The position numbers and the translations under genes were made by a program. DNA of 64,000 nt from a virus (Duplodnaviria; Caudoviricetes), in the IMG/VR virus record IMGVR_UViG_3300044735_000130, positions 6,176 to 70,175 of that record; one strand, written 5' to 3'. Under the pieces are notes generated by a model. It was not told the DNA's origin. It saw nothing but the letters and a program-made list of their open reading frames with translations, and ran no database searches. Each line of letters begins with the position of its first letter. The first letter of the stretch is position 1. Shown piece by piece: positions 49,945 to 60,297 of the stretch.

Positions 49945-50123
49945 TTACGGCTTGAAATGCGCAGTGGTCGGCTAGGCGTTTCAGCCGCTCCACCTCGTTC
50001 CGAAGTTCCGCCAGACAAATAGGACATCCCCAAGCGTTCGGGGATTCGCCGTGGAGGGCACACGAGTGCGGACCTAAAGTATGACTCATGGAAAAACCGT
50101 GCCTATTGGGCAGCTGATAGGAC

Positions 50124-50366
50124 CTAGTCAGGCCAGTCCAGGTTTTCGAATTCGCCGGGGTTTTGCTTAAGGTGATCCCAATGCATTTGGCGGCCAATGG
50201 ACAGCGAGCGGCGGCGGCCGTCTACGACGCGCATTAGCCTAGAGACGCGCGTAAGGATGCGGCGGCGGGCAGTTTCGCTTTTGCTCTTAGCGAATCGGTT
50301 AAGGGCAACATGGAACCAAGTCGGAATTCCGTATGGCCCTATTTGATCGGGGTAGTGTTTAAGCAT
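50124..50366 (-). CDS. Hypothetical basic protein
   Basis: Within the coupled minus-strand operon. Confidence 0.45.
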   Translation of the reverse strand: MLKHYPDQIGPYGIPTWFHVALNRFAKSKSETARRRILTRVSRLMRVVDGRRRSLSIGRQMHWDHLKQNPGEFENLDWPD

Positions 50367-50586
50367 GGGGATCCTTTGGAAGCGTCCAGCGCGTAAAGCG
50401 GCGATCGCGGGGCTTTGCTGCTTTGCGTGGAATACGGTAGTCCCGCCCCTCTAGCCGCGCGCCTTCGATAAGCCCCTGTTCGCAATATTGGGTGGCTCTG
50501 CGCCGGGAAATGCCATGTAGGGCGGCCCATTCGGCCGTCCCAATGGTATCAAGGAGGTCAGCGGGACTCAATGCCATAGCGATCAT
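50359..50586 (-). CDS. Excisionase-like HTH protein
   Basis: IGTAEWAALHGISRRRATQYCEQGLIEGA...RDYRIP. Confidence 0.75.
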   Translation of the reverse strand: MIAMALSPADLLDTIGTAEWAALHGISRRRATQYCEQGLIEGARLEGRDYRIPRKAAKPRDRRFTRWTLPKDPHA

Positions 50587-50798
50587 TATACCTTTCCCGC
50601 CCCCTTTTCTGTCCGATATTTTCGTTCTAGCTGGAAGAGGGTTAGGCGTAAGCTTTCGTTCATGAAATGCGCGCTTTTGATGGCCTGGATTAGCTTTTCC
50701 GGAGGGTCGGGCGGGAGCGTTTTTTCCAAGGATCGAAGGCGGGATTTGATGGTGTTGACGTCGCCGAAAATGGCTTGGATTTGTTCTATGGGCGTCAT
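50586..50798 (-). CDS. Hypothetical coiled-coil protein
   Basis: Overlapping start/stop codons. Confidence 0.5.
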   Translation of the reverse strand: MTPIEQIQAIFGDVNTIKSRLRSLEKTLPPDPPEKLIQAIKSAHFMNESLRLTLFQLERKYRTEKGAGKV

Positions 50799-51022
50799 TC
50801 GGCGTCGTCCTCTCCTTCGTCAATCCCGAATCCTGCGCTTAAGGAGCCGCCTAAGATCTCGGCGGCTGGAATGGGATCGCTATTCTGGAATATGGGCGGC
50901 GGTTGAGGCGATTGAAGGCTTTCCGGATACCATGTTTCGCCAATAAATCGAAGGTTTCGCCACGCATCATAAGCGTTTATTCCTTTGGCCGGGATAGGAA
51001 TCCAAAAGGTGTAATTATTCAT
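50795..51022 (-). CDS. Hypothetical protein
   Basis: ATGA coupling. Confidence 0.45.
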   Translation of the reverse strand: MNNYTFWIPIPAKGINAYDAWRNLRFIGETWYPESLQSPQPPPIFQNSDPIPAAEILGGSLSAGFGIDEGEDDAE

Positions 51023-51672
51023 GTGTTAAAGATCTCCCGGATTTTAAAGATGAGGTTTTGGGCTTGTTCATGGGTGAGGTCGTCAATCGTGATCTTATTA
51101 TACCGGCCGGTGCTGATATCGATTTCGGCGCGGACGCGGTTGGCGTTGTTGGGATCCCGCGGAAGAATGGGCAGGTTGCAACGGCGGTTCTCGACGTATC
51201 GCCGCAGGTCGTCCGGCTTGATCTGCGCTTCGCATATGCGGGCGTAATGCTCCAGTAAGGCCCGATAATCCCTGTCCGCGTTTTCCGCCGCCACCTTTTT
51301 ATCGAGGTGGTGAGCGTATCGTTCCAAGGCTGCCGGCAAGATGCGCTTGGCCAGGCTTTTAGCCGCATCGGTTACGTTTCGGTCGCCATCAACACTAAAG
51401 TTTAAGGCTGGGCCCCCGGAAAAGTCATATCCGGGAGTGCAGTAAGAGGCCGTGATTTTCCGATAGGGGTAATGGCACGAAACCGAAACCCGTGTTCCGT
51501 TGACATGGGTGAGGTAATTGCGATCGTAATCCGCTTGAAGGGAGTATTTCCAATCCGGATTATCCTTGGCCATTTGTTTCGCGATCAGGGTCGCTCTTAG
51601 TTTCCGTTCTTTTTGCTGTCGCTCTTTCTTCTCGCGTTCTAGCCTGCGCTGGTCTTCATAGCTTCCGATCAT
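51019..51672 (-). CDS. Hypothetical early protein
   Basis: Start after AGGAGCAAAGACC (MIGSYEDQRR...). Confidence 0.7.
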   Translation of the reverse strand: MIGSYEDQRRLEREKKERQQKERKLRATLIAKQMAKDNPDWKYSLQADYDRNYLTHVNGTRVSVSCHYPYRKITASYCTPGYDFSGGPALNFSVDGDRNVTDAAKSLAKRILPAALERYAHHLDKKVAAENADRDYRALLEHYARICEAQIKPDDLRRYVENRRCNLPILPRDPNNANRVRAEIDISTGRYNKITIDDLTHEQAQNLIFKIREIFNT

Positions 51673-51784
51673 GGTCTTTGCTCCTAACTGGATTCCCGCC
51701 AGATATGCCCCATCCTTGCAGGGGCCGGGCCTGGGAATCATTCCCCAGGTGCCGCGCCTAAACCGGGCGCGTTCGGCAACTGAT

Positions 51785-51976
51785 TTAGATCCTTTCCATA
51801 TCCAAGCGTTTATTGAATTCCGCAAGGGCGCAATCCGCTATCTCCGCGCATTCTTTGGCCATGGCTTCGGGGGTTTGGCGATTATCCCCATTAGCCATAA
51901 TCGCCGCTTGCATAAACCGTTTCCATTCCATTGCATTTTGGGAGTGAGGGTGGAATTTCGGCATTTCTTGGGCCAT
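51785..51976 (-). CDS. Hypothetical early protein
   Basis: AAAGGA RBS; FMQAAIMANG...A.ECAEIADCALAE. Confidence 0.55.
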   Translation of the reverse strand: MAQEMPKFHPHSQNAMEWKRFMQAAIMANGDNRQTPEAMAKECAEIADCALAEFNKRLDMERI

Positions 51977-51981
51977 AATTA

Positions 51982-52341
51982 TTATCCTTTCGCTTTGGCT
52001 ATAAGTTGGTCGAATCTGTCCAAGATCTTTTTCGATCGATATAACCATGTGACTTCTGTTTTGAGGATGCGTGTAGCTTCCTCCAAGGCGTGTACCAAGT
52101 CGGGAGTCAGAGCAATTAGTTGCATGTTGGCGCGGTCCATTGCTTCCGGATTGTTGGCGAAACCTTGGCAAATCGAATACAGGCCGGCAGGGTTATCTAT
52201 GTCAGTATAAACCGATCTACCGCTTGGATGGGCTTTCCATGGGCCGGGTGTATGCTGGGTTGCGATCCGATCATATAGTTCCGCGGATGCCTCCAAGTCT
52301 TCGGGATCGATTTCATCGGCTTCGGGGTTGTAATTTGGCAT
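51982..52341 (-). CDS. HTPGPW...ANxxLIA family early protein
   Basis: HTPGPWK...ANMQLIALTPDLVHAL. Confidence 0.65.
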   Translation of the reverse strand: MPNYNPEADEIDPEDLEASAELYDRIATQHTPGPWKAHPSGRSVYTDIDNPAGLYSICQGFANNPEAMDRANMQLIALTPDLVHALEEATRILKTEVTWLYRSKKILDRFDQLIAKAKG

Positions 52342-52343
52342 GG

Positions 52344-52763
52344 TTATTTTCCCTGCGCTTTGGCGACGGTTTTCTGTGATTGGCGGAGGGCGCGGAGGGC
52401 CAGCGCGCGCTGATCTCGATGGATCCAGGGGTAATCATAGCCCGGATGATCATTAAACCCGGCCTGTCCGCGTTCGGGTGATGCGCATCCCTCTAGGATG
52501 TTAGAGAGCGCATCATGTAGGGCTTGGCAGGTTTTGAGCAAATTAGGGGCAGCGGCAATTAGACGCATGTTCGCCTTATCTTCATCATTACCCGTGATGA
52601 CTTCGGCGATCAGTTTTAGGCCCGTAGCGGCCTTTCTAGACCATATGCGGGCAAAGTGCCCCATGGGTTCCGCTTCCCAGGGTTCTTGCGTGTGCTTGGA
52701 AAGCTGCTTAATGAATTGGCGCTTTCCAGCCTTGGTGGTGATGGGGTAATCTTTCGTCATCAA
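52344..52763 (-). CDS. HTPGPW...ANxxLIA family early protein
   Basis: HTQEPWE...ANMRLIAAAPNLLKTC. Confidence 0.65.
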   Translation of the reverse strand: MMTKDYPITTKAGKRQFIKQLSKHTQEPWEAEPMGHFARIWSRKAATGLKLIAEVITGNDEDKANMRLIAAAPNLLKTCQALHDALSNILEGCASPERGQAGFNDHPGYDYPWIHRDQRALALRALRQSQKTVAKAQGK

Positions 52764-52954
52764 AGTTCTCCGGTTTCCATGGGATCATTAGCGGGGACGG
52801 CATCTAAGACCGTCATTTTTCCGATTCCGGTTTCTTGGTCGGCGCGTGGTATTCCGTTGGCGTACGCTTTTGCTTCCGCCTCGGCTGCATCTTTGGCTTC
52901 GATTTTCATTTCGCCAAAGGTTTCCCATTTGACTTTCACAATATATTCGGGCAT
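52760..52954 (-). CDS. Small hypothetical protein
   Basis: YIVKV..T...KIEAKDAAEAEAKA; AGAAAGGAAC RBS. Confidence 0.6.
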   Translation of the reverse strand: MPEYIVKVKWETFGEMKIEAKDAAEAEAKAYANGIPRADQETGIGKMTVLDAVPANDPMETGEL

Positions 52955-52969
52955 CTAGCGTTCCTTTCT

Positions 52970-53020
52970 GCCGTCTTAGTCAATCCAGGCCCGCGACGGG
53001 GACGCGCGGCTAGTGGGCCC
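52970..53020 (-). ncRNA. Minimal HDV-like (theta-like) self-cleaving ribozyme
   Basis: P1 GGGCCC/GGGCCU with G.U at +1; P2 GCCG/CGGC; P3 GCG/CGC; L3 UCCCCGU; GG after P1; J4/2 ACUAA; no real P4. Confidence 0.8.
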
Positions 53021-53048
53021 ATATAAGCGGGCGCAAGGCCCGCGCGGG

Positions 53049-53276
53049 TTAGGTTTCTCGCTGTATTCCGTGGATGGTTGCGCGATCTAATCCTCCGCAT
53101 TGGCAGGATTTGATCCCGCAAAAATGCCGGGCCGCCCGTTTTTGTTGGGAGGGTGTGAGCATATGTGGCCATCCAAGGCTATAGCGGCCCGGTTCGATCC
53201 AGAATAGGATCAGGGGTCTCTTATGGAATCCTCCTTGCGCGGTGATCTTGATGCGGTGTGCGAGTTGCTTGCTCAT
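53049..53276 (-). CDS. Hypothetical early protein
   Basis: LTPSQQKRA.RHFCG..SCQCG. Confidence 0.6.
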   Translation of the reverse strand: MSKQLAHRIKITAQGGFHKRPLILFWIEPGRYSLGWPHMLTPSQQKRAARHFCGIKSCQCGGLDRATIHGIQRET

Positions 53277-53279
53277 GGA

Positions 53280-53366
53280 TTAGGCTTCCTGTTTTAGCGC
53301 CAACCAATAGGCGGCGGGAAAGATGGAAAGGGACAAAGCGAAGTGAATCGGGATTGCGTAGGCCAT
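53280..53366 (-). CDS. 28-aa hydrophobic peptide
   Basis: TAATG overlap; MAYAIPIHFALSLSIFPAAYWLALKQEA. Confidence 0.45.
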   Translation of the reverse strand: MAYAIPIHFALSLSIFPAAYWLALKQEA

Positions 53367-53620
53367 TACATTCCCTCGGGGAGATAGTCTTCCAGCTTGT
53401 AGCGCTGGACCATAGACGGGACAGCCGCATCGGTTTCCGTCGTCCCGTAGACAGTCTTTTTAGGCTTCGGGAGCGGCACGGCCTCTAGGCCTTCGTGCGC
53501 GCTGAACTTGAGGAAGTCCGATCCCCGGTGGATGGCGTGGCCGCGCTTCTTGGCTTCCGCAATGAGGCGATCCAGGGTTGCGGGTTCGTGCTCGGTGAAT
53601 ACAACGATTTGAGGCTTCAT
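53366..53620 (-). CDS. Hypothetical early protein
   Basis: AGGAGCAAAGACT RBS. Confidence 0.65.
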   Translation of the reverse strand: MKPQIVVFTEHEPATLDRLIAEAKKRGHAIHRGSDFLKFSAHEGLEAVPLPKPKKTVYGTTETDAAVPSMVQRYKLEDYLPEGM

Positions 53621-53644
53621 AGTCTTTGCTCCTTGGGTTGTCTT

Positions 53645-53698
53645 GCCCGACGCGGTTTCCCGCGTTTCGGCCGGGCGTGGCCGGCCATCGTCAGGGGC
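53645..53698 (-). ncRNA. Type I hammerhead ribozyme (copy 1)
   Basis: GCCC-CUGACGA-U-GGCCGG(CCACGC)CCGGCC-GAAAC-GCGG(GAAA)CCGC-GUC-GGGC. Confidence 0.9.
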
Positions 53699-54021
53699 TA
53701 AAGCTTAAGCGCCTTCCTTTTTTTGGTCGGGCAGTCCAGGACATCGGGGAATTTCACAATCGAATCCCCTTCGGCCTTGACATAGACCATTCGCCCCGGG
53801 TCCATCGCCGCATGCTTGCGCGATTTCAGGAAGGCGGCGAACTCGGGCCCATCTTCGTTCCCGAGGATGAAAAGGGATAGGCGATGCGTTTTCCCGGCCT
53901 GGTCGGTCACGTGGACGTATTGCGCCGAATCCGAGGTCGGCCGCGCTTCCCGACAAACCGAGGACGCATGGGCGATCGGGCTGAGGATGGCCAGGGACAG
54001 GAAAATAAGCTTGGTTTTCAT
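53698..54021 (-). CDS. Secreted/periplasmic hypothetical protein
   Basis: Signal peptide MKTKLIFLSLAILSPIAHA-S; two Cys. Confidence 0.65.
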   Translation of the reverse strand: MKTKLIFLSLAILSPIAHASSVCREARPTSDSAQYVHVTDQAGKTHRLSLFILGNEDGPEFAAFLKSRKHAAMDPGRMVYVKAEGDSIVKFPDVLDCPTKKRKALKL

Positions 54022-54037
54022 GGTCTTTGCTCCTTTT

Positions 54038-54089
54038 TCTCCCTCTGCATTTCTCCGGGCTTGGGACCGGCCTAGGCTGCATTAAGAGG
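54038..54089 (-). ncRNA. Twister ribozyme, type P1
   Basis: UCU-U^AA-UGCA-GCCUAGGC-CGGUCCCAAGCCCGG-AGAAA-UGCA-GAGGG-AGA. Confidence 0.9.
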
Positions 54090-54109
54090 CCCCTAAAAGG
54101 GGCTTGGGG

Positions 54110-54430
54110 CTAGACTTCGCTTCTAGCTCGGCTAATTGCCGCCTGGGCTTCTATGGCCCAATGCTTGGCCGTATCGGCGCGGTGTTGGCCTTGGCTTCGT
54201 AGCCAATCGGCGCAAGTGGTAAGGGCGCGCTCGGCCGCTTCCAGGGCTGCAAGAGTGGCCGGGGCTTCGGCGATCAAACGGGCGTTATATTCGTCTTCAT
54301 CCGTCCAAGCGGGCAATTTTCCCATGTGGGCCCGGCGTGGACCGTGCAGGGTGAAAAACTTATCCCCGCCCGTTCCATCTTGGAAGGCGTGATACTTGGT
54401 GTGCCAGGGTGCGGGTGTATGCGTTGCCAC
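54110..54430 (-). CDS. HTPGPW...NARLIA family early protein
   Basis: GTG start after AGGAGCAAAGACC; HTPAPW...NARLIAEAPATLAALE. Confidence 0.7.
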   Translation of the reverse strand: MATHTPAPWHTKYHAFQDGTGGDKFFTLHGPRRAHMGKLPAWTDEDEYNARLIAEAPATLAALEAAERALTTCADWLRSQGQHRADTAKHWAIEAQAAISRARSEV

Positions 54431-54451
54431 GGTCTTTGCTCCTTTGTTCTT

Positions 54452-54505
54452 GCCCGACCCGGAATCCCGGGTTTCGGCCCCGCGCTGGGGGCCATCATCA
54501 GGGGC
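54452..54505 (-). ncRNA. Type I hammerhead ribozyme (copy 2)
   Basis: GCCC-CUGAUGA-U-GGCCCC(CAGCGC)GGGGCC-GAAAC-CCGG(GAUU)CCGG-GUC-GGGC. Confidence 0.9.
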
Positions 54506-54508
54506 GAA

Positions 54509-55609
54509 TTACTGGCCGATGCCAATATCCCAGATCGAAACCGGCTGCGGCGCATAGGTGGCGAGCTGCGCGGCCTGGGAGGTTTCCACGGCCCGGAGGA
54601 TGCGGGAAATGTCGTCCTCCATGTCCATCACCTCTACCAAGGTCTGAAGCGCGCGGCCGTTCTTCTCCGCAATGGAGCCGAATAAGACCGCCTTTGCTCG
54701 CCCCTCTTCCTTGCTGATCGTCTCGTCGTGCAGGCGGACGGCTCCCGAGTGGCAAAAGTGTTTGGTTGCGGCATTGTAGGCGTTCCAAGCGGTCGCCGGG
54801 TCAATGCGGCCGCCATCGGCATCCCGCCACAAACGCGCGACGGAATCGGCTTGCTCCTTGGCGTTCTTGGCCCCCTGGGACTCGGTCTTCCCTTCCGCGG
54901 GAAAGAGGCGGAAGAGGTATTCCCGCATATGGTCCTCGGTCACGCGCTTCCGGGCCAGGGCTTGGAAAACGCGCTCGGTCTTGACCAAGCGATCCCCGAT
55001 GATGTGATACGCCCGCTTTGCGGCCCGAAGGCGGTCTTCCGCGCTCTTGGTGTGCGAAATGGCGAATCCATCGTCGGAGCCGTTCAGGGCCCGGGTAAGC
55101 GTGTTGGCGCATACAATGCGGGTGGGGGTCGTAAAATACTTCATGCGGCCGGATCCATCGTGGGCGTTCGCCCAGGTGATCCGCCGTTTTACAACGTCCT
55201 TAAATCCTCCGCGGCCCGTGTCGCCGATGACCATTTCCCCCAGGTCAATCTGAGCCACAGCCACGCGTCCGCCGTCAAAGGTCATTCCACGGGCCATGAC
55301 CATGCCCCCCGCTTCGCCCGCAAAGGCGGACAGGATTTCTACGGCTTCGTCATTCTGGATGGTCGTAAAACGGCTGGACAAGCCCGATCCCAGGATTTCG
55401 CGGGTGTCTTCGCGGTAGACGTCATAAAAGTGCGTGGGCTGGCCGTTAAGGGCGTTCTTATGGTTCACAGTCAAGACCTTGTAATCGAGGCCGTGATCCC
55501 GCATCCACGCGCGGATCCCCTCTTGGGTGTTCAAGGTCTGGCGCTCTTCCTGGCCGAAGTACTTTTCCGTGTCTAAATCAAGGCCGAAAGCGAGGTTACG
55601 GGCGATCAT
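54509..55609 (-). CDS. DUF932 family phage/plasmid protein
   Basis: LDYKV..YREDT..ILG..S.RFT.IQN; FDGGR.A..Q; WANAHDGSG..F.TPTRIVCANTL..AL; AWNAYNA. Confidence 0.88.
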   Translation of the reverse strand: MIARNLAFGLDLDTEKYFGQEERQTLNTQEGIRAWMRDHGLDYKVLTVNHKNALNGQPTHFYDVYREDTREILGSGLSSRFTTIQNDEAVEILSAFAGEAGGMVMARGMTFDGGRVAVAQIDLGEMVIGDTGRGGFKDVVKRRITWANAHDGSGRMKYFTTPTRIVCANTLTRALNGSDDGFAISHTKSAEDRLRAAKRAYHIIGDRLVKTERVFQALARKRVTEDHMREYLFRLFPAEGKTESQGAKNAKEQADSVARLWRDADGGRIDPATAWNAYNAATKHFCHSGAVRLHDETISKEEGRAKAVLFGSIAEKNGRALQTLVEVMDMEDDISRILRAVETSQAAQLATYAPQPVSIWDIGIGQ

Positions 55610-55650
55610 GGTCTTTGCTCCTAGTGAGGGTGGAATTACCCTACGCTCAT

Positions 55651-55679
55651 AAGATACCTCCAGAGGAAGGATATAACAA
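55651..55679 (-). promoter_or_regulatory. Early operon sigma70-type promoter
   Basis: TTGTTA-N17-TATCTT, ~40 nt upstream of the DUF932 start. Confidence 0.7.
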
Positions 55680-55764
55680 GGGTAGGACTAAGCCGATCGC
55701 ATAAGAAAAGCGGAACAAATCACCCCGATTTATGCTTGGCGGACTGAATAAGGATTAGATCCCC

Positions 55765-56484
55765 ATGGAAGAGCTAACCCCCCTAACCGACCTAACCCCC
55801 GAATTCCCCCCAAAAGGCAAAAAAAGGCCCGAACGGCTTAAACACGCCAACCCCGCCAACGTCCCCACCATCGGCACCGGAAGCACAAACGAATCCCTCA
55901 CCGATGACGATATCGCCGAAGCCTTCTCTAAAGCCGGCGGCCAACCCAAAAGGGTCAAAGGACGGCTTTCCTCCGATGTGGGCGCCTATAAGCCCGAGTA
56001 CTGCCAATCCCTGATCGATTTCTTCGACCGACCCCCCACCCGGGAAATCCTCGAAACCTGGTATCATTCGGATGGATCGGTTAAAAGAGAAAGCCTAAAG
56101 GAAATCCCGAACAGCCCCCCCCACCTCGGCCAATGGGCCATGTCCATCGGATTTTATCCGTTCGTGGCGTATGAGTGGGCGCGGAAACATAAAGATTTTG
56201 CCTATGCTCTCGCATGCGCTCGATCTCTCCGTAAGCACCTGGTCATTGATAACGCCCTGAAAGGCCTTTATAACCCGATTTTCGCCAAGCTGGCGGCCGC
56301 CAACTGGTTCCAGTGGTCGGAGAAACAGGACGTGCACCATTCCGGGGAAGTCAAATCCGTCCTCGTGGCCTACCATAAGCCCGAGCGGGAGGCGCCGGTT
56401 CAAATCGAGGCGGCCGAAGTCCTGCCGCTGCCCGGTCCCGCGCCGACCCCTCTCCCTCTACCCGAAGCCGAAGGCGAGGGGTAA
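55765..56484 (+). CDS. Terminase small subunit
   Basis: YKPEYCQ.LIDFF..PP.L..WA..IG....YEWA..H.DFA.A...LIDNALKGLYNPIFAK..WSEKQDV. Confidence 0.8.
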   Translation: MEELTPLTDLTPEFPPKGKKRPERLKHANPANVPTIGTGSTNESLTDDDIAEAFSKAGGQPKRVKGRLSSDVGAYKPEYCQSLIDFFDRPPTREILETWYHSDGSVKRESLKEIPNSPPHLGQWAMSIGFYPFVAYEWARKHKDFAYALACARSLRKHLVIDNALKGLYNPIFAKLAAANWFQWSEKQDVHHSGEVKSVLVAYHKPEREAPVQIEAAEVLPLPGPAPTPLPLPEAEGEG

Positions 56485-56742
56485 CAATGCATTCGAATGC
56501 AATTGCATTCCCCCCGGGGAGGAGGGGGACAGTACGTGGGGGTATAGGGGGGGCCCATGGGTTCCCTAAAATGCCCCTCTAAGCCGATCCGACTTCCGTA
56601 CGACCCCCTGCCCCGTTAGACGGTCCTTTTATCCCGCCCGTGGACAATCGGCATTTTGGGACACCTCCCCCACCCCGCCCGGTGGCCGCTCGGTAGCCTT
56701 GGAAGCACCGGACAGGCCACCAGCCGGCCACCGCCAAAAAAT

Positions 56743-56997
56743 TTAGCCCTTAGGCCCCTTCCCGCTGTTTGACCCGGCCCGGCTGGCCAGGCTGATGCCG
56801 AACTTTTGACGGGTGTAGTCGAAGCGGAAGAAGCGGTACAGGAGGTCCAGCTTGTACTCTGCCCGTTCTCGTTCCCGGGGGTCGAGCCAGGGGCCGTGGG
56901 CGGAGCAGAGTTGGTTTTCCAGGTGGAGGTATTCCTGGAACTTGGCGGGGTAGGCGAGGATGAGGTCTTCGGTGGAGTCGGCGTTAATGGGCGGCAC
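56743..56997 (-). CDS. Hypothetical protein
   Basis: Coupled to the upstream RHH gene. Confidence 0.5.
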   Translation of the reverse strand: MPPINADSTEDLILAYPAKFQEYLHLENQLCSAHGPWLDPRERERAEYKLDLLYRFFRFDYTRQKFGISLASRAGSNSGKGPKG

Positions 56998-57214
56998 GGG
57001 CCTTCATCCTTTCGTTGTAGGCTTGGACGGTTTGGTTGTAGTAGTGGCGGATGGCTTTGCGGCAGAAGGAGGAGAGGGATTCGGCGCGGTAGCCTTTTTC
57101 TTGGGCGAGGCGTTCGAGGAGAATGGGGATAGCGTGGTCGAGGTCGGCGTCGAGGCGGATGCCGCGGTAGACCTTGCTTTTATTGTCCTCGGGACTCGGG
57201 GTGTAGGTGCTCAT
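56984..57214 (-). CDS. RHH-like regulator (leaderless)
   Basis: KVYRGIRLDADLD....SLSSFCRKAIRHY; GGACTT-N17-TACAAT 6 nt before the ATG. Confidence 0.6.
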   Translation of the reverse strand: MSTYTPSPEDNKSKVYRGIRLDADLDHAIPILLERLAQEKGYRAESLSSFCRKAIRHYYNQTVQAYNERMKARAAH

Positions 57215-57291
57215 GGATCCATTGTATAACGCCTTTTTTAGGAAAGTCCGGATTATCGCATTGGAGAATGGAGGAGGCAAGGGGGTACCAG

Positions 57292-57732
57292 ATGCAGTTC
57301 AAGTTCCGGGATCGGGTGAGGGTCGTGTCGCAGCCGTCGAAGATTGTGCGGCCGGATGGGCATGTGAGCCAGGGGGAGTTCTTCGAGGGGGCGGAGGGGA
57401 CCGTCATTCGACATGATCCGCAGAAGGAAGGATACCTGTTGGTCATGGACTGCCCCGAGCTCTCGGCCCTGATGGGCGAGAACATCACCGCCAGCTTCCG
57501 GGAGTATGAGCTGGAGCTGGTGCACTCGGTGAAGGAGCAGCGGGAGAAGGATGAGGAAGCGCGGAAGCAGGTGGGGACAGCGCGGCCCTACACGGTTCCG
57601 GGTGGAACCTTGACTACGAACGGGCCTTATTTCATCCCGGCCAATACGGGAGAGAACATTGTTCCCTTTCTGACCAAGGAGCAACGGCTGAAGCGGAAGG
57701 CCCGCGGTCTGGAGGGCAAGGCCGATGCTTGA
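57292..57732 (+). CDS. KOW/SH3-like fold protein
   Basis: FKFRDRVRV...GAEGTVI..YLLV..SFREYELELV. Confidence 0.55.
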   Translation: MQFKFRDRVRVVSQPSKIVRPDGHVSQGEFFEGAEGTVIRHDPQKEGYLLVMDCPELSALMGENITASFREYELELVHSVKEQREKDEEARKQVGTARPYTVPGGTLTTNGPYFIPANTGENIVPFLTKEQRLKRKARGLEGKADA

Positions 57733-57863
57733 TCTCTCCCCTACCCCCACCCGCTTTCCGATTCCTACCGGCTTCGAATCCTGGTTTTATTGGACGGGCG
57801 AGTACGTGCGCTCCCGATTGACCGGCCTCCGCTACAGCGTGGAGGCGGCTCGGGTGCTCTTGA

Positions 57864-58679
57864 ATGTCCGTCGCACCTAAGGGCTTAACGACGGCGGCGT
57901 TCTTTGCCAAGAACGACGACCTTGCGCAGCGATATCCTCTAGCCTCCGAGTCCGCCCGGAGGAACATCCTTGATGAGCTGTATAAGCTGGACCTGCACCT
58001 CTTCCAGGCGTGGCGGGTCTTGGGGGAGGATCGCGAGGACTATAAGCAGTCGGCCGTCCTCTGGCTGGCCCGGGCCCTGGAGACGTATAAGCCGGGCAAG
58101 GGGCCGTTTGTCCACTGGCTCCGCTTCTACGTCCAGAAGACTTTTACCGCCCACGTTCGCGACTACAAATCCTCCTTAAGCTTATCAGAGGCAGAGGAGG
58201 ACCATGCGGCCGCACCGGAAGAGGAAGAGCCGGACCCTGTCTTCTGGCGGGCGCTGAAGGCGAAGACGACCCCCGAAGAATGGGACCTGATCGAACGGCG
58301 GTTCCTGAAAGGGCAGGATATCCAGGAAATCGCCAAGGACTTGGGCACCTATCCCGAGAAGATCCGTGGGCCGATCAAGGAGGTTCTGGAGCGTTTCAAG
58401 GTCTCCACAATAAAACCCAATAAGATGGGCGAAAATTTTTCGGACCTGGACGACGCCGGCGCGCGGTGGATCAAGCGGCCGGAGCTGGGGCGGATTCTCG
58501 GCCTCTCCCCGCACAAGCTCAACTGCATGACCAATCCGAATATCCCCCGCCATTACACCTCGACCATGATCCACCCCCATGACATCATCCGCGTCCCCAC
58601 GATTCGCATCCGATTCCTTTTAACTGATAAAGGCCTCATTTATCCCCGCCTGGTTCCCCGCCCCAAGATCAAGCGCTGA
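57864..58679 (+). CDS. Phage sigma-70-like transcription factor with an extra C-terminal HTH
   Basis: Region 2-like EDYKQSAVLWLARALETYKPGKGPFVHWLRFY; region 4-like EEWDLIERRF.KGQDIQEIAKDLG. Confidence 0.7.
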   Translation: MSVAPKGLTTAAFFAKNDDLAQRYPLASESARRNILDELYKLDLHLFQAWRVLGEDREDYKQSAVLWLARALETYKPGKGPFVHWLRFYVQKTFTAHVRDYKSSLSLSEAEEDHAAAPEEEEPDPVFWRALKAKTTPEEWDLIERRFLKGQDIQEIAKDLGTYPEKIRGPIKEVLERFKVSTIKPNKMGENFSDLDDAGARWIKRPELGRILGLSPHKLNCMTNPNIPRHYTSTMIHPHDIIRVPTIRIRFLLTDKGLIYPRLVPRPKIKR

Positions 58680-58695
58680 GGCGGATTAGACTCCC

Positions 58696-60297
58696 ATGAC
58701 CTACACGAGTATGAAGGGGGAGTGGTTCAATCCCGAGGACCCCTTAGCCAAGCTCGAGCCGGAGCGGCGCGTCATTTACCCCCAGAAAGGGTCGCAGCTG
58801 ACCATGCTCACCACGAACGCCACGGAGGTGTTCATGGGCGGCGAGGCCGGCGGCGGCAAATCGTTCGGCTTCCTTCTGGACTTCCTCGAAGACATCGATA
58901 AGCCGCAAGCCAACGGCCTCTTTCTCCGCCGGCATTACACCGACCTGGAAGGCATCATCCACGAGGCCTTGGGGCTGTACAAGGGATTCGGCGCTAGCTT
59001 CAACGAGCAGCGGCATACGTTCACGTTCCCAAGTGGGGCCCGGCTTCGCTTCGGCCATCTCAATAACGTCAAGGACGTCTACAACTACACGGGTAACCAG
59101 CGCACCCACTACTACTGGGACGAGCTCTGTCAGTTCCCGAAGATGCCCTACCTCCTCCTCATGGCCTGGCTCCGCTCGCCGGATACGACCATCTTCAAGC
59201 GCATCCGCGCCTCGGGAAACCCGGACGGTGAAGGGTTCCTCTGGGTGAAGGACCGCTTTATCGACAAGCTCCAGCCGATGGAGAAGGCCTGGTTCCTGAC
59301 GAAGCACGATCGGGACACCAAGGTGCCCCCCGGCACGCCCGGCGCCATGCTCCGCCAGTTCATCCCCTGCTACCGCGAAGAGAACAAGGCGCTGATGGAG
59401 AAGGATCCGGGCTACCGCGACCGCCTGGAGCAGCTGCCCGAAGACAAGAAGCGCGCATACAAGTACGGCATCTGGGACCTCGCCGACCGGCCGTTCCAGG
59501 TCGTGCGGACCCGCGACTGGGTCAAGGCGCTTTCGGGGGAGAACCGGAAGCGGCCGGGGCTCTATGCCCTGGGCGCGGACTATGCGGAGCATGGGGACAA
59601 GTGTACCCTCTGCGTCGGCTTCGGGAACCAGGTCCGGAAGTTCAAGGAATGGCCGGGCATGGAGACGCCCGACTTCGGGAAAAAGATCCTCGATGAGGCC
59701 CAAGGCTGCGCGGACATCATGGGCGCGCGGAACGTATCGATCGGTATCGACTCCATCGGCCCGGGCACGGGCGTCTTCCACTTCCTGAAAGGCAATCCCA
59801 AGGGCTACCGCATCGACCCGATGAAGTATAAGGACAAAGCGTACGATCGCCAGGCCGCGGACTCCGCGTACAAGATCCGCTTCAATAACCTGCGCTCGCA
59901 GATGTGGTGGAAATTCAAGGAAGACATGGCCGCAGGGCTGATTGATCTCTCCGACCTGCAGGGCGAAAAGGGCTACTACGAAAACCTGCACCTCCTTCAA
60001 GAAGAGGTTTTGGCGCATACCTACAAGGAAGAGAACGGCGTCATTAAGATCGTGGATAAGAACACCCTCCGCGACGCCGACCACCTGAACCGCTCCCCGG
60101 ATAGAGCCGACGCCTTGGTCATTTGGAATTGGGTCCGTGAACGCCACCGCGAGCACAAGCCCGCCCCCATCGTGGACCTGCACTTCACCCCCGAGGCCGC
60201 CCGCATGCGCGACCTGGTGCGCCGGCGCATGTTCCAGGCGGAAGATACGGATGTCGTGGTGGACGATGAAGATATGAATTCCTGGCAAGCGGGATAG
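58696..60297 (+). CDS. Terminase large subunit
   Basis: Walker A GGEAGGGKS; LFLRR; Walker B YYWDE; ASGNP coupling motif; nuclease GADYA..GD, GIDSIGPG, RSPDRADAL. Confidence 0.93.
   Translation: MTYTSMKGEWFNPEDPLAKLEPERRVIYPQKGSQLTMLTTNATEVFMGGEAGGGKSFGFLLDFLEDIDKPQANGLFLRRHYTDLEGIIHEALGLYKGFGASFNEQRHTFTFPSGARLRFGHLNNVKDVYNYTGNQRTHYYWDELCQFPKMPYLLLMAWLRSPDTTIFKRIRASGNPDGEGFLWVKDRFIDKLQPMEKAWFLTKHDRDTKVPPGTPGAMLRQFIPCYREENKALMEKDPGYRDRLEQLPEDKKRAYKYGIWDLADRPFQVVRTRDWVKALSGENRKRPGLYALGADYAEHGDKCTLCVGFGNQVRKFKEWPGMETPDFGKKILDEAQGCADIMGARNVSIGIDSIGPGTGVFHFLKGNPKGYRIDPMKYKDKAYDRQAADSAYKIRFNNLRSQMWWKFKEDMAAGLIDLSDLQGEKGYYENLHLLQEEVLAHTYKEENGVIKIVDKNTLRDADHLNRSPDRADALVIWNWVRERHREHKPAPIVDLHFTPEAARMRDLVRRRMFQAEDTDVVVDDEDMNSWQAG

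Follow-up and report, generated by a model that had tools for sequence, protein, structure and literature searches.

The gap between a DUF932-family gene and the small gene behind it, on the minus strand of the phage DNA analysed here (a stretch of 64,000 nucleotides, hereafter the window), holds a sequence that can be regarded, on the basis of its core, its helices and its relatives, as a genuine and complete type I hammerhead ribozyme. We consider it likely that this copy (HH2) is functional within the minus-strand operon mRNA of an uncultured soil or rhizosphere phage, and that HH2, a second hammerhead further downstream (HH1) and a twister ribozyme cut the transcript into single-gene mRNAs. 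The window was taken from a viral record of IMG/VR that counts 70,175 bases and has direct terminal repeats, and the public runs that contain it are soil and rhizosphere metagenomes. The positions of the ribozymes, their parts and the surrounding genes are collected in Table 1.

Table 1. Position of the ribozymes, the structural elements of HH2 and the neighbouring genes within the window
Feature	Position	Strand	Remarks
DUF932 gene	55609..54509	-	366-aa product, DUF932 family match
UAA stop of DUF932 gene	54509..54511	-	3 nt ahead of HH2 stem I
HH2 (hammerhead copy 2)	54505..54452	-	gap between DUF932 gene and 106-aa gene
HH2 stem I, 4 bp	GCCC 54505-54502 with GGGC 54455-54452	-	open end
HH2 core CUGAUGA	54501-54495	-	N7 is U at 54497
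HH2 extra U	54494	-	between A9 and G10.1
HH2 stem II, 6 bp	GGCCCC 54493-54488 with GGGGCC 54481-54476	-	6-nt loop CAGCGC
HH2 GAAA	54475-54472	-	
HH2 stem III	CCCGG 54471-54467 with CCGGG 54462-54458, plus closing pair A54472-U54457	-	loop GAUU
HH2 predicted scissile bond	54455..54456	-	3' of C17 (54456); deduced from the location of GUC with regard to stems III and I
AAGA tail	54448..54451	-	directly 3' of stem I
RBS motif (AGGAGCAAAGAC plus C) and GUG start of 106-aa gene	54428..54443	-	
106-aa gene	54430..54110	-	phrog_1273; directly downstream of HH2
Type-P1 twister ribozyme	54088..54037	-	RF03160, 58 bits, E 2.9e-11; gap between HH2 and HH1
107-aa gene	54021..53698	-	start resembles a signal peptide
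HH1 (hammerhead copy 1)	53698..53645	-	C17 at 53649
84-aa gene	53620..53366	-	downstream of HH1

Core, helices and fold of the two copies

HH2 has the type I topology, in which stem I is open and loops cap stems II and III. The residues of the hammerhead core (C3, U4, G5, A6, N7, G8 and A9, then G12, A13 and A14, the pair A15.1-U16.1, and H17, which is not G) are complete in HH2 as well as in HH1, and the G10.1-C11.1 pair of HH2 is formed by G54493 and C54476. The hammerhead shape is the minimum free energy fold of HH2, and likewise that of HH1. For HH2 the fold is kept when flanks of 150 nt are included, with pair probabilities of 0.76-0.92. Beyond its 4 bp, stem I of the window copies could be extended by at most 2-3 weak extra pairs. 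A separate observation concerns HH1 (taken as 53641-53702, minus strand), for which stem I is predicted to be displaced by other pairings in the presence of a flank of at least 30 nt (pair probability at most 0.03).

A preliminary description of this DNA had put forward HH2 as a copy with compensatory changes relative to HH1 and with a predicted cut after C54456. Its coordinates and the predicted cut position are correct, the GUC being placed between stems III and I, and the changes it listed were recovered when both copies were read in the minus strand: stem II is GGCCCC/GGGGCC in HH2 versus GGCCGG/CCGGCC in HH1, stem III is CCCGG/CCGGG versus CGCGG/CCGCG, and N7 is a U versus a C, whereas the remaining core, the extra U, the GCCC/GGGC stem I and the AAGA tail are unchanged. 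The two copies align without gaps and differ at 13 of 62 positions. Six of these differences are located in stems and make up three G-C/C-G swaps, of which stem II has two and stem III has one, and no pair is broken; the other seven affect N7, loop II, loop III and the 5' flank. The earlier claim that pairing is kept despite the change in sequence thus holds, with three double changes and zero disruptive ones. When six stem substitutions were drawn at random, all 16 pairs were kept in 4.4e-4 of the trials, and when thirteen substitutions were placed anywhere, all 16 pairs survived in 8.9e-4 of the trials. Given the compensatory changes between the copies, none of which is disruptive, the RNA fold appears to be under selection.

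Relatives in viral contigs

Taken by itself, the core pattern carries no significance, as it was matched in 16 of 100 shuffles, and weight was therefore placed on the helices and on the relatives. These were gathered by two DNA-pattern scans of viral contigs, which yielded 58 distinct sequences with all three helices; the 24 that aligned cleanly were checked by hand and make up alignment A1. Within A1, 13 of the 17 pairs display a change on both sides and 97.5% of the cells hold a pair, a share that drops to 31-47% once the partner column is slid. A covariance model built from A1 (R1) gave 95 matches in 83 sources, and among the 89 distinct ones both-side changes were found for 16 of the 17 pairs, with 96.2% of the cells paired. 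The sets of relatives favour pairing, having been gathered by pattern, by a pairing filter and with a structure model. Considering the effect size and the slid controls, there is still little doubt, as judged from the sequences, that these represent real hammerhead helices. The alignment with homologues, named beforehand in the preliminary description as one way to check it, has brought out strong covariation in all three helices over the 89 distinct relatives. The selection on structure that had been proposed at the outset is supported by the pair of window copies alone and is greatly strengthened by the relatives.

To keep the window copies out of the model, a second one (R2) was made of 22 hammerheads from other viral contigs only. 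Its scores were 59.5 bits for HH2 and 59.1 bits for HH1 (E around 3e-18), the next best match in the window having 11 bits; in the whole 70 kb record HH1 and HH2 are the only two model matches. A chance origin of the two copies was rejected on the basis of the R2 scores and the substitution trials. Across the 95 relatives, the core positions C3, U4, G5, A6, G8, A9, G12-A14, A15.1-U16.1 and H17 are invariant or nearly so.

The nearest relatives of the window copies reside on a metagenome contig (L085:4359-6235, minus strand) that carries four hammerheads within 1 kb. All four have the same stem I as the window copies, starting at the G of a UAG stop, and in all four loop II is CNNCGC. The AAGA tail is identical in HH1, HH2 and the four L085 hammerheads. 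Stems II and III of L085 are unlike those of the window, and over the five closest relatives (window plus L085) 6 of 15 pairs are changed on both sides. Two of the L085 hammerheads do not have the extra U, and one copy is degenerate, with A9 and most of stem II missing. The L085 ribozymes separate genes of 66-100 aa, two of which are paralogous, and two twister-P5 ribozymes are found further along the same strand.

A tertiary contact between stem I and loop II is needed for fast hammerhead cleavage at the low Mg2+ concentrations of the cell. Among the relatives, a pseudoknot of 4-5 bp between loop II and the 3' tail is possible in 60 of 92, compared to around 35 expected from shuffles. We further observed that in alignment A2 (loci L009-L079) the pseudoknot pairs covary (e.g. 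CGGGC/GCCCG, UGGCU/AGCCA and UGACC/GGUCG); this type of contact was described in 2011. For the window copies, a comparison of loop II with the 14 nt that flank stem I on each side gave nothing beyond 2-3 bp, and loop II and the 3' tail could form at most 2 bp. A contact of non-Watson-Crick type might be provided by the AAGA tail, which is conserved, together with loop II and its CNNCGC pattern. One may go further and view the type I hammerheads that abut a stop codon, mostly with the extra U, as a coherent phage subfamily missed by the databases. Within it, the subgroup of the window and L085 would stand out by its invariant GCCC/GGGC stem I, its AAGA tail and a CNNCGC loop II replacing the pseudoknot. 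The subfamily would then act as a natural insulator cassette that gives small early or accessory genes the same 5'-OH leader and RBS, would hold a new non-Watson-Crick contact and would perhaps mark a junction for gene exchange. Taken as a whole, we regard this proposal as speculative and rather unlikely.

The position between A9 and G10.1 is occupied in the 95 model matches by a U in 77 cases (a frequency that is overstated, as the scan pattern demanded U), by an A in two and by a G in one, and is empty in 15. Given the two L085 copies that do without it, the extra U is optional. There is a precedent for a residue at this site: according to the accounts in PMC3705267 and PMC1636495, the (+) hammerhead of CChMVd has a natural extra residue, A10, between A9 and G10.1, and its replacement by U raised the rate of trans-cleavage 3-4 fold (De la Pena and Flores 2001, as related in PMC3705267). 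On the strength of these accounts, the extra U is no argument against activity of HH2. The likeness lies in the single extra nucleotide at exactly the same core position. In contrast to the window copies, which are of type I, have a U and are located in the mRNA of a DNA phage, the CChMVd ribozyme is a type III viroid ribozyme with a natural A that belongs to a rolling-circle replicon.

None of the Rfam hammerhead families was matched over the whole window at the gathering score, nor within 50000-60000 or 54400-54560 at E <= 10. The type I model RF00163 (Hammerhead_1) has its topology and core in common with HH1 and HH2, yet leaves both of them unreported even at E <= 10. At the gathering score it recovers one of around 40 related phage hammerheads (18 loci) and none of the four on L085, the two without the extra U included. 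As almost every related copy goes unrecognized by these models too, the silence of Rfam was not counted against HH1 and HH2.

The absence of an Rfam match would also fit a reading of HH2 as a conserved RNA structure that does not cleave, and whose G+C-rich hairpins past the stop codon serve as a 3' stabiliser or as a binding site for a protein. The shortness of stem I and the search for a tertiary contact, which came up empty, point in the same direction, and the degenerate copy on L085 implies that decay does occur in such arrays. We nevertheless hold this reading to be highly improbable. The catalytic core is complete in HH1 as well as HH2 and does not vary among the 95 relatives, a constancy for which a simple hairpin would have no need, and hammerheads of the same arrangement do cleave (PMC3088659).

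Arrays of related hammerheads are found on several contigs, with around ten copies on L038 (within 6.6 kb), five on L003 and three each on L071, L075 and L052. On L038 (2988-6431, plus strand) the roughly ten hammerheads are spaced 300-500 nt apart among small ORFs and most have no extra U; a single one of them was recovered by Rfam at the gathering score. Twisters adjoin the related hammerheads on L006, L026, L041 and L085. A search of the viral contigs for related loci with the DUF932 protein of the window yielded no relative. DUF932 homologues with 25-29% identity were observed at around 1 kb or less from hammerheads on L005, L041 and L042, on L041 also near twisters, which suggests that the DUF932 family is recurrently linked to ribozyme arrays. 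A scan of genome contigs gave one match, on a contig of a Methanomassiliicoccales MAG (L086:5132-5196, minus strand). This sequence is hammerhead-like and has the GCCC/GGGC-AAGA ends, with 22.7 bits against R1 and a poor stem II, and it was rejected as a clue to the host, the score being too weak and the match isolated.

Operon context and proposed processing of the transcript

HH2, the twister and HH1 occupy three successive intergenic gaps, in sense orientation to the minus-strand genes, each flanked by a stop codon and the RBS that follows. The 5' edge of each of the three ribozymes lies a few bases from the stop codon, and the 3' edge 25-28 nt ahead of the next start; for HH1 the first base of stem I is the G of the upstream UAG stop. 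The same placement characterizes the family. In 73 of 92 cases, an ORF with 50 codons or more has its stop codon at -3 to 15 nt before C3, compared to 9% for positions drawn at random from these loci, and a Shine-Dalgarno sequence plus start codon is present within 90 nt downstream in 69 of 95 members, at a median of around 34 nt. The twister scores below the gathering score of RF03160 (67.2), with all conserved positions matched and one optional hairpin absent. ORFs on the plus strand also overlap the HH2 site; these were set aside given that the minus-strand genes have family matches. Three small products of the phage match phrog_1273, and the gene for the small subunit of the terminase is located on the opposite strand to the ribozyme operon. 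The RBS motif occurs in eight exact copies in the phage, among which are five ribozyme-free sites (38740, 39682, 47797, 51674 and 55611).

A scan for terminator-like sites gave just two, both at 55657-55727, upstream of the DUF932 start, and none between 52800 and 55609 in the operon. Since a simple scan for a consensus sigma-70-like promoter upstream of the operon found none, a single shared transcript is what we infer. Elsewhere in the record, we observed that the gap before the gene starting at 51671 (51672-51981, minus strand) is unusually long at around 310 nt, is G+C-rich and contains several possible hairpins; it had no match in Rfam. The record also has a tmRNA gene of full length (124.8 bits), which is adjoined by two genes for tRNAs with a long arm, at 1578-2534 of the window (minus strand).

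Based on the observed motif, its conservation and covariation, and its placement, the following course of events can be proposed. Upon transcription of the operon, the 54-nt motif would fold and break its own chain 3' of C54456, separating the DUF932 gene from the 106-aa gene. The upstream product would retain nearly the whole ribozyme as a G+C-rich 3' end, with two stable hairpins and a 2',3'-cyclic phosphate, at 53 nt past the stop codon; the hairpins and the cyclic phosphate should slow down 3' exonucleases. The downstream product would start with a 5'-OH at G54455 and carry an unstructured 25-nt leader, of which only the first four bases come from stem I and which leads into the standard RBS of the phage. 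HH1 and the twister would act in the same way at the next two gene junctions, with the difference that the twister would be cut near its own 5' end and thus stay on the downstream product. In this manner, a long transcript would be turned into single-gene mRNAs whose stability and translation may be independent of those of their neighbours. After the predicted cut, the first 8 nt of the leader and the RBS are identical for HH1 and HH2. A self-cleaving element upstream of an RBS brings to mind the insulators of the RiboJ type, commonly attributed to Lou et al. (2012), in which self-cleavage reportedly creates a fixed 5' leader that is independent of the upstream sequence. RiboJ is an engineered device derived from sTRSV, with an added hairpin, and the likeness to HH1 and HH2, which share the start of their leaders and their RBS, would be a functional one only.

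Two other roles can be envisaged for the pair of hammerheads. In the first, the hammerhead and the RBS chiefly form a junction cassette for the shuffling of genes, in which they provide the homology for recombination of one phage with another, small accessory genes are swapped as units and cleavage is secondary. A related strain, recovered from other soil and rhizosphere runs, is of importance in this respect. It shows 41 substitutions (4% divergence) across the DUF932 gene (54520-55554) and zero across 53888-54519, and beyond 53888 its resemblance to the window ends. One of its divergence boundaries therefore coincides with the 5' edge of HH2, and this switch from 4% divergence to none is what recombination at a cassette could leave behind. 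Likewise, HH1 and HH2 have stem I, the AAGA tail and the RBS in common despite unrelated flanking genes, and the arrays of the relatives (around ten hammerheads on L038, five on L003 and four on L085) separate small and variable genes. Homology for recombination, however, requires neither a catalytic core nor covariation of base pairs, the other breakpoint of the related strain is located inside a gene and away from the ribozymes, and the RBS motif is also present at the five ribozyme-free sites. A main function in gene shuffling is therefore very unlikely. HH2 and the twister are unchanged in the related strain, which hence adds no covariation.

In the second, HH1 and HH2 together excise the intervening segment of 807 nt, which is subsequently ligated to yield a circular or a spliced RNA. 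Such a possibility was raised by Perreault et al. (PMC3088659), and the identity of stem I and tail in copies whose stems II and III have diverged would suit it, as the ends of the segment can rebuild a hammerhead. Yet any circle would be cut by the internal twister, circular or spliced products went undetected in the work of Perreault et al. (PMC3088659), and the phage does not encode an RtcB ligase, which could rejoin the ribozyme ends. Moreover, stem I varies between the copies on one contig elsewhere (e.g. L075 and L003). Considering these points, excision is extremely improbable, and the cutting of the operon mRNA into single-gene units is the reading that we retain.

Relation to known phage ribozymes

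Clustered hammerheads that flank genes have been reported for prophages, where they cleave in vitro as well as in vivo (in E. coli), and the processing of long transcripts was proposed as their role (Perreault et al. 2011, PMC3088659). The arrays described were those of Agrobacterium tumefaciens, Azorhizobium caulinodans and Clostridium scindens (PMC3088659). Like in the window, several hammerheads of the same sense occupy the gaps of a phage operon and flank single small genes of varied identity, and the proposed role is the same, namely the conversion of long phage transcripts into gene-length mRNAs. The window differs in that it belongs to an uncultured soil phage, in that both copies are of type I with the extra U and a stem I of 4 bp, in that the common pseudoknot between loop II and the 3' tail cannot be formed, and in that a twister is mixed in between the two hammerheads. 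The co-occurrence of twisters and hammerheads near phage genes has itself been described (Roth 2014 and Weinberg 2015, as summarized in PMC6155905 and PMC6765202). According to these summaries, different self-cleaving classes are found there in equivalent gaps beside small genes of unknown function, and in this respect they indicate no essential difference from the window. The processing of polycistronic transcripts has also been proposed in a later review, which still calls the purpose of these ribozymes unresolved and according to which a benefit has been demonstrated for no phage (PMC6765202).

The layout has thus been known since 2011, and the window is a clean but ordinary example of clustered phage hammerheads that by itself leaves existing knowledge unchanged. 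Modest interest attaches to the extra U, to the lack of the pseudoknot and to the failure of the Rfam model to recognize this group. Most of the related copies escape the Rfam type I model, and phage genomes therefore probably hold more such ribozymes than their annotation shows. The analysis adds two well-supported hammerheads, and around 90 relatives on viral contigs, to the phage operons that are punctuated by ribozymes, in arrays that reach ten copies within 6.6 kb. With two hammerheads and a twister in equivalent positions ahead of the same RBS motif, the window makes a compact test case for ribozymes of this kind.
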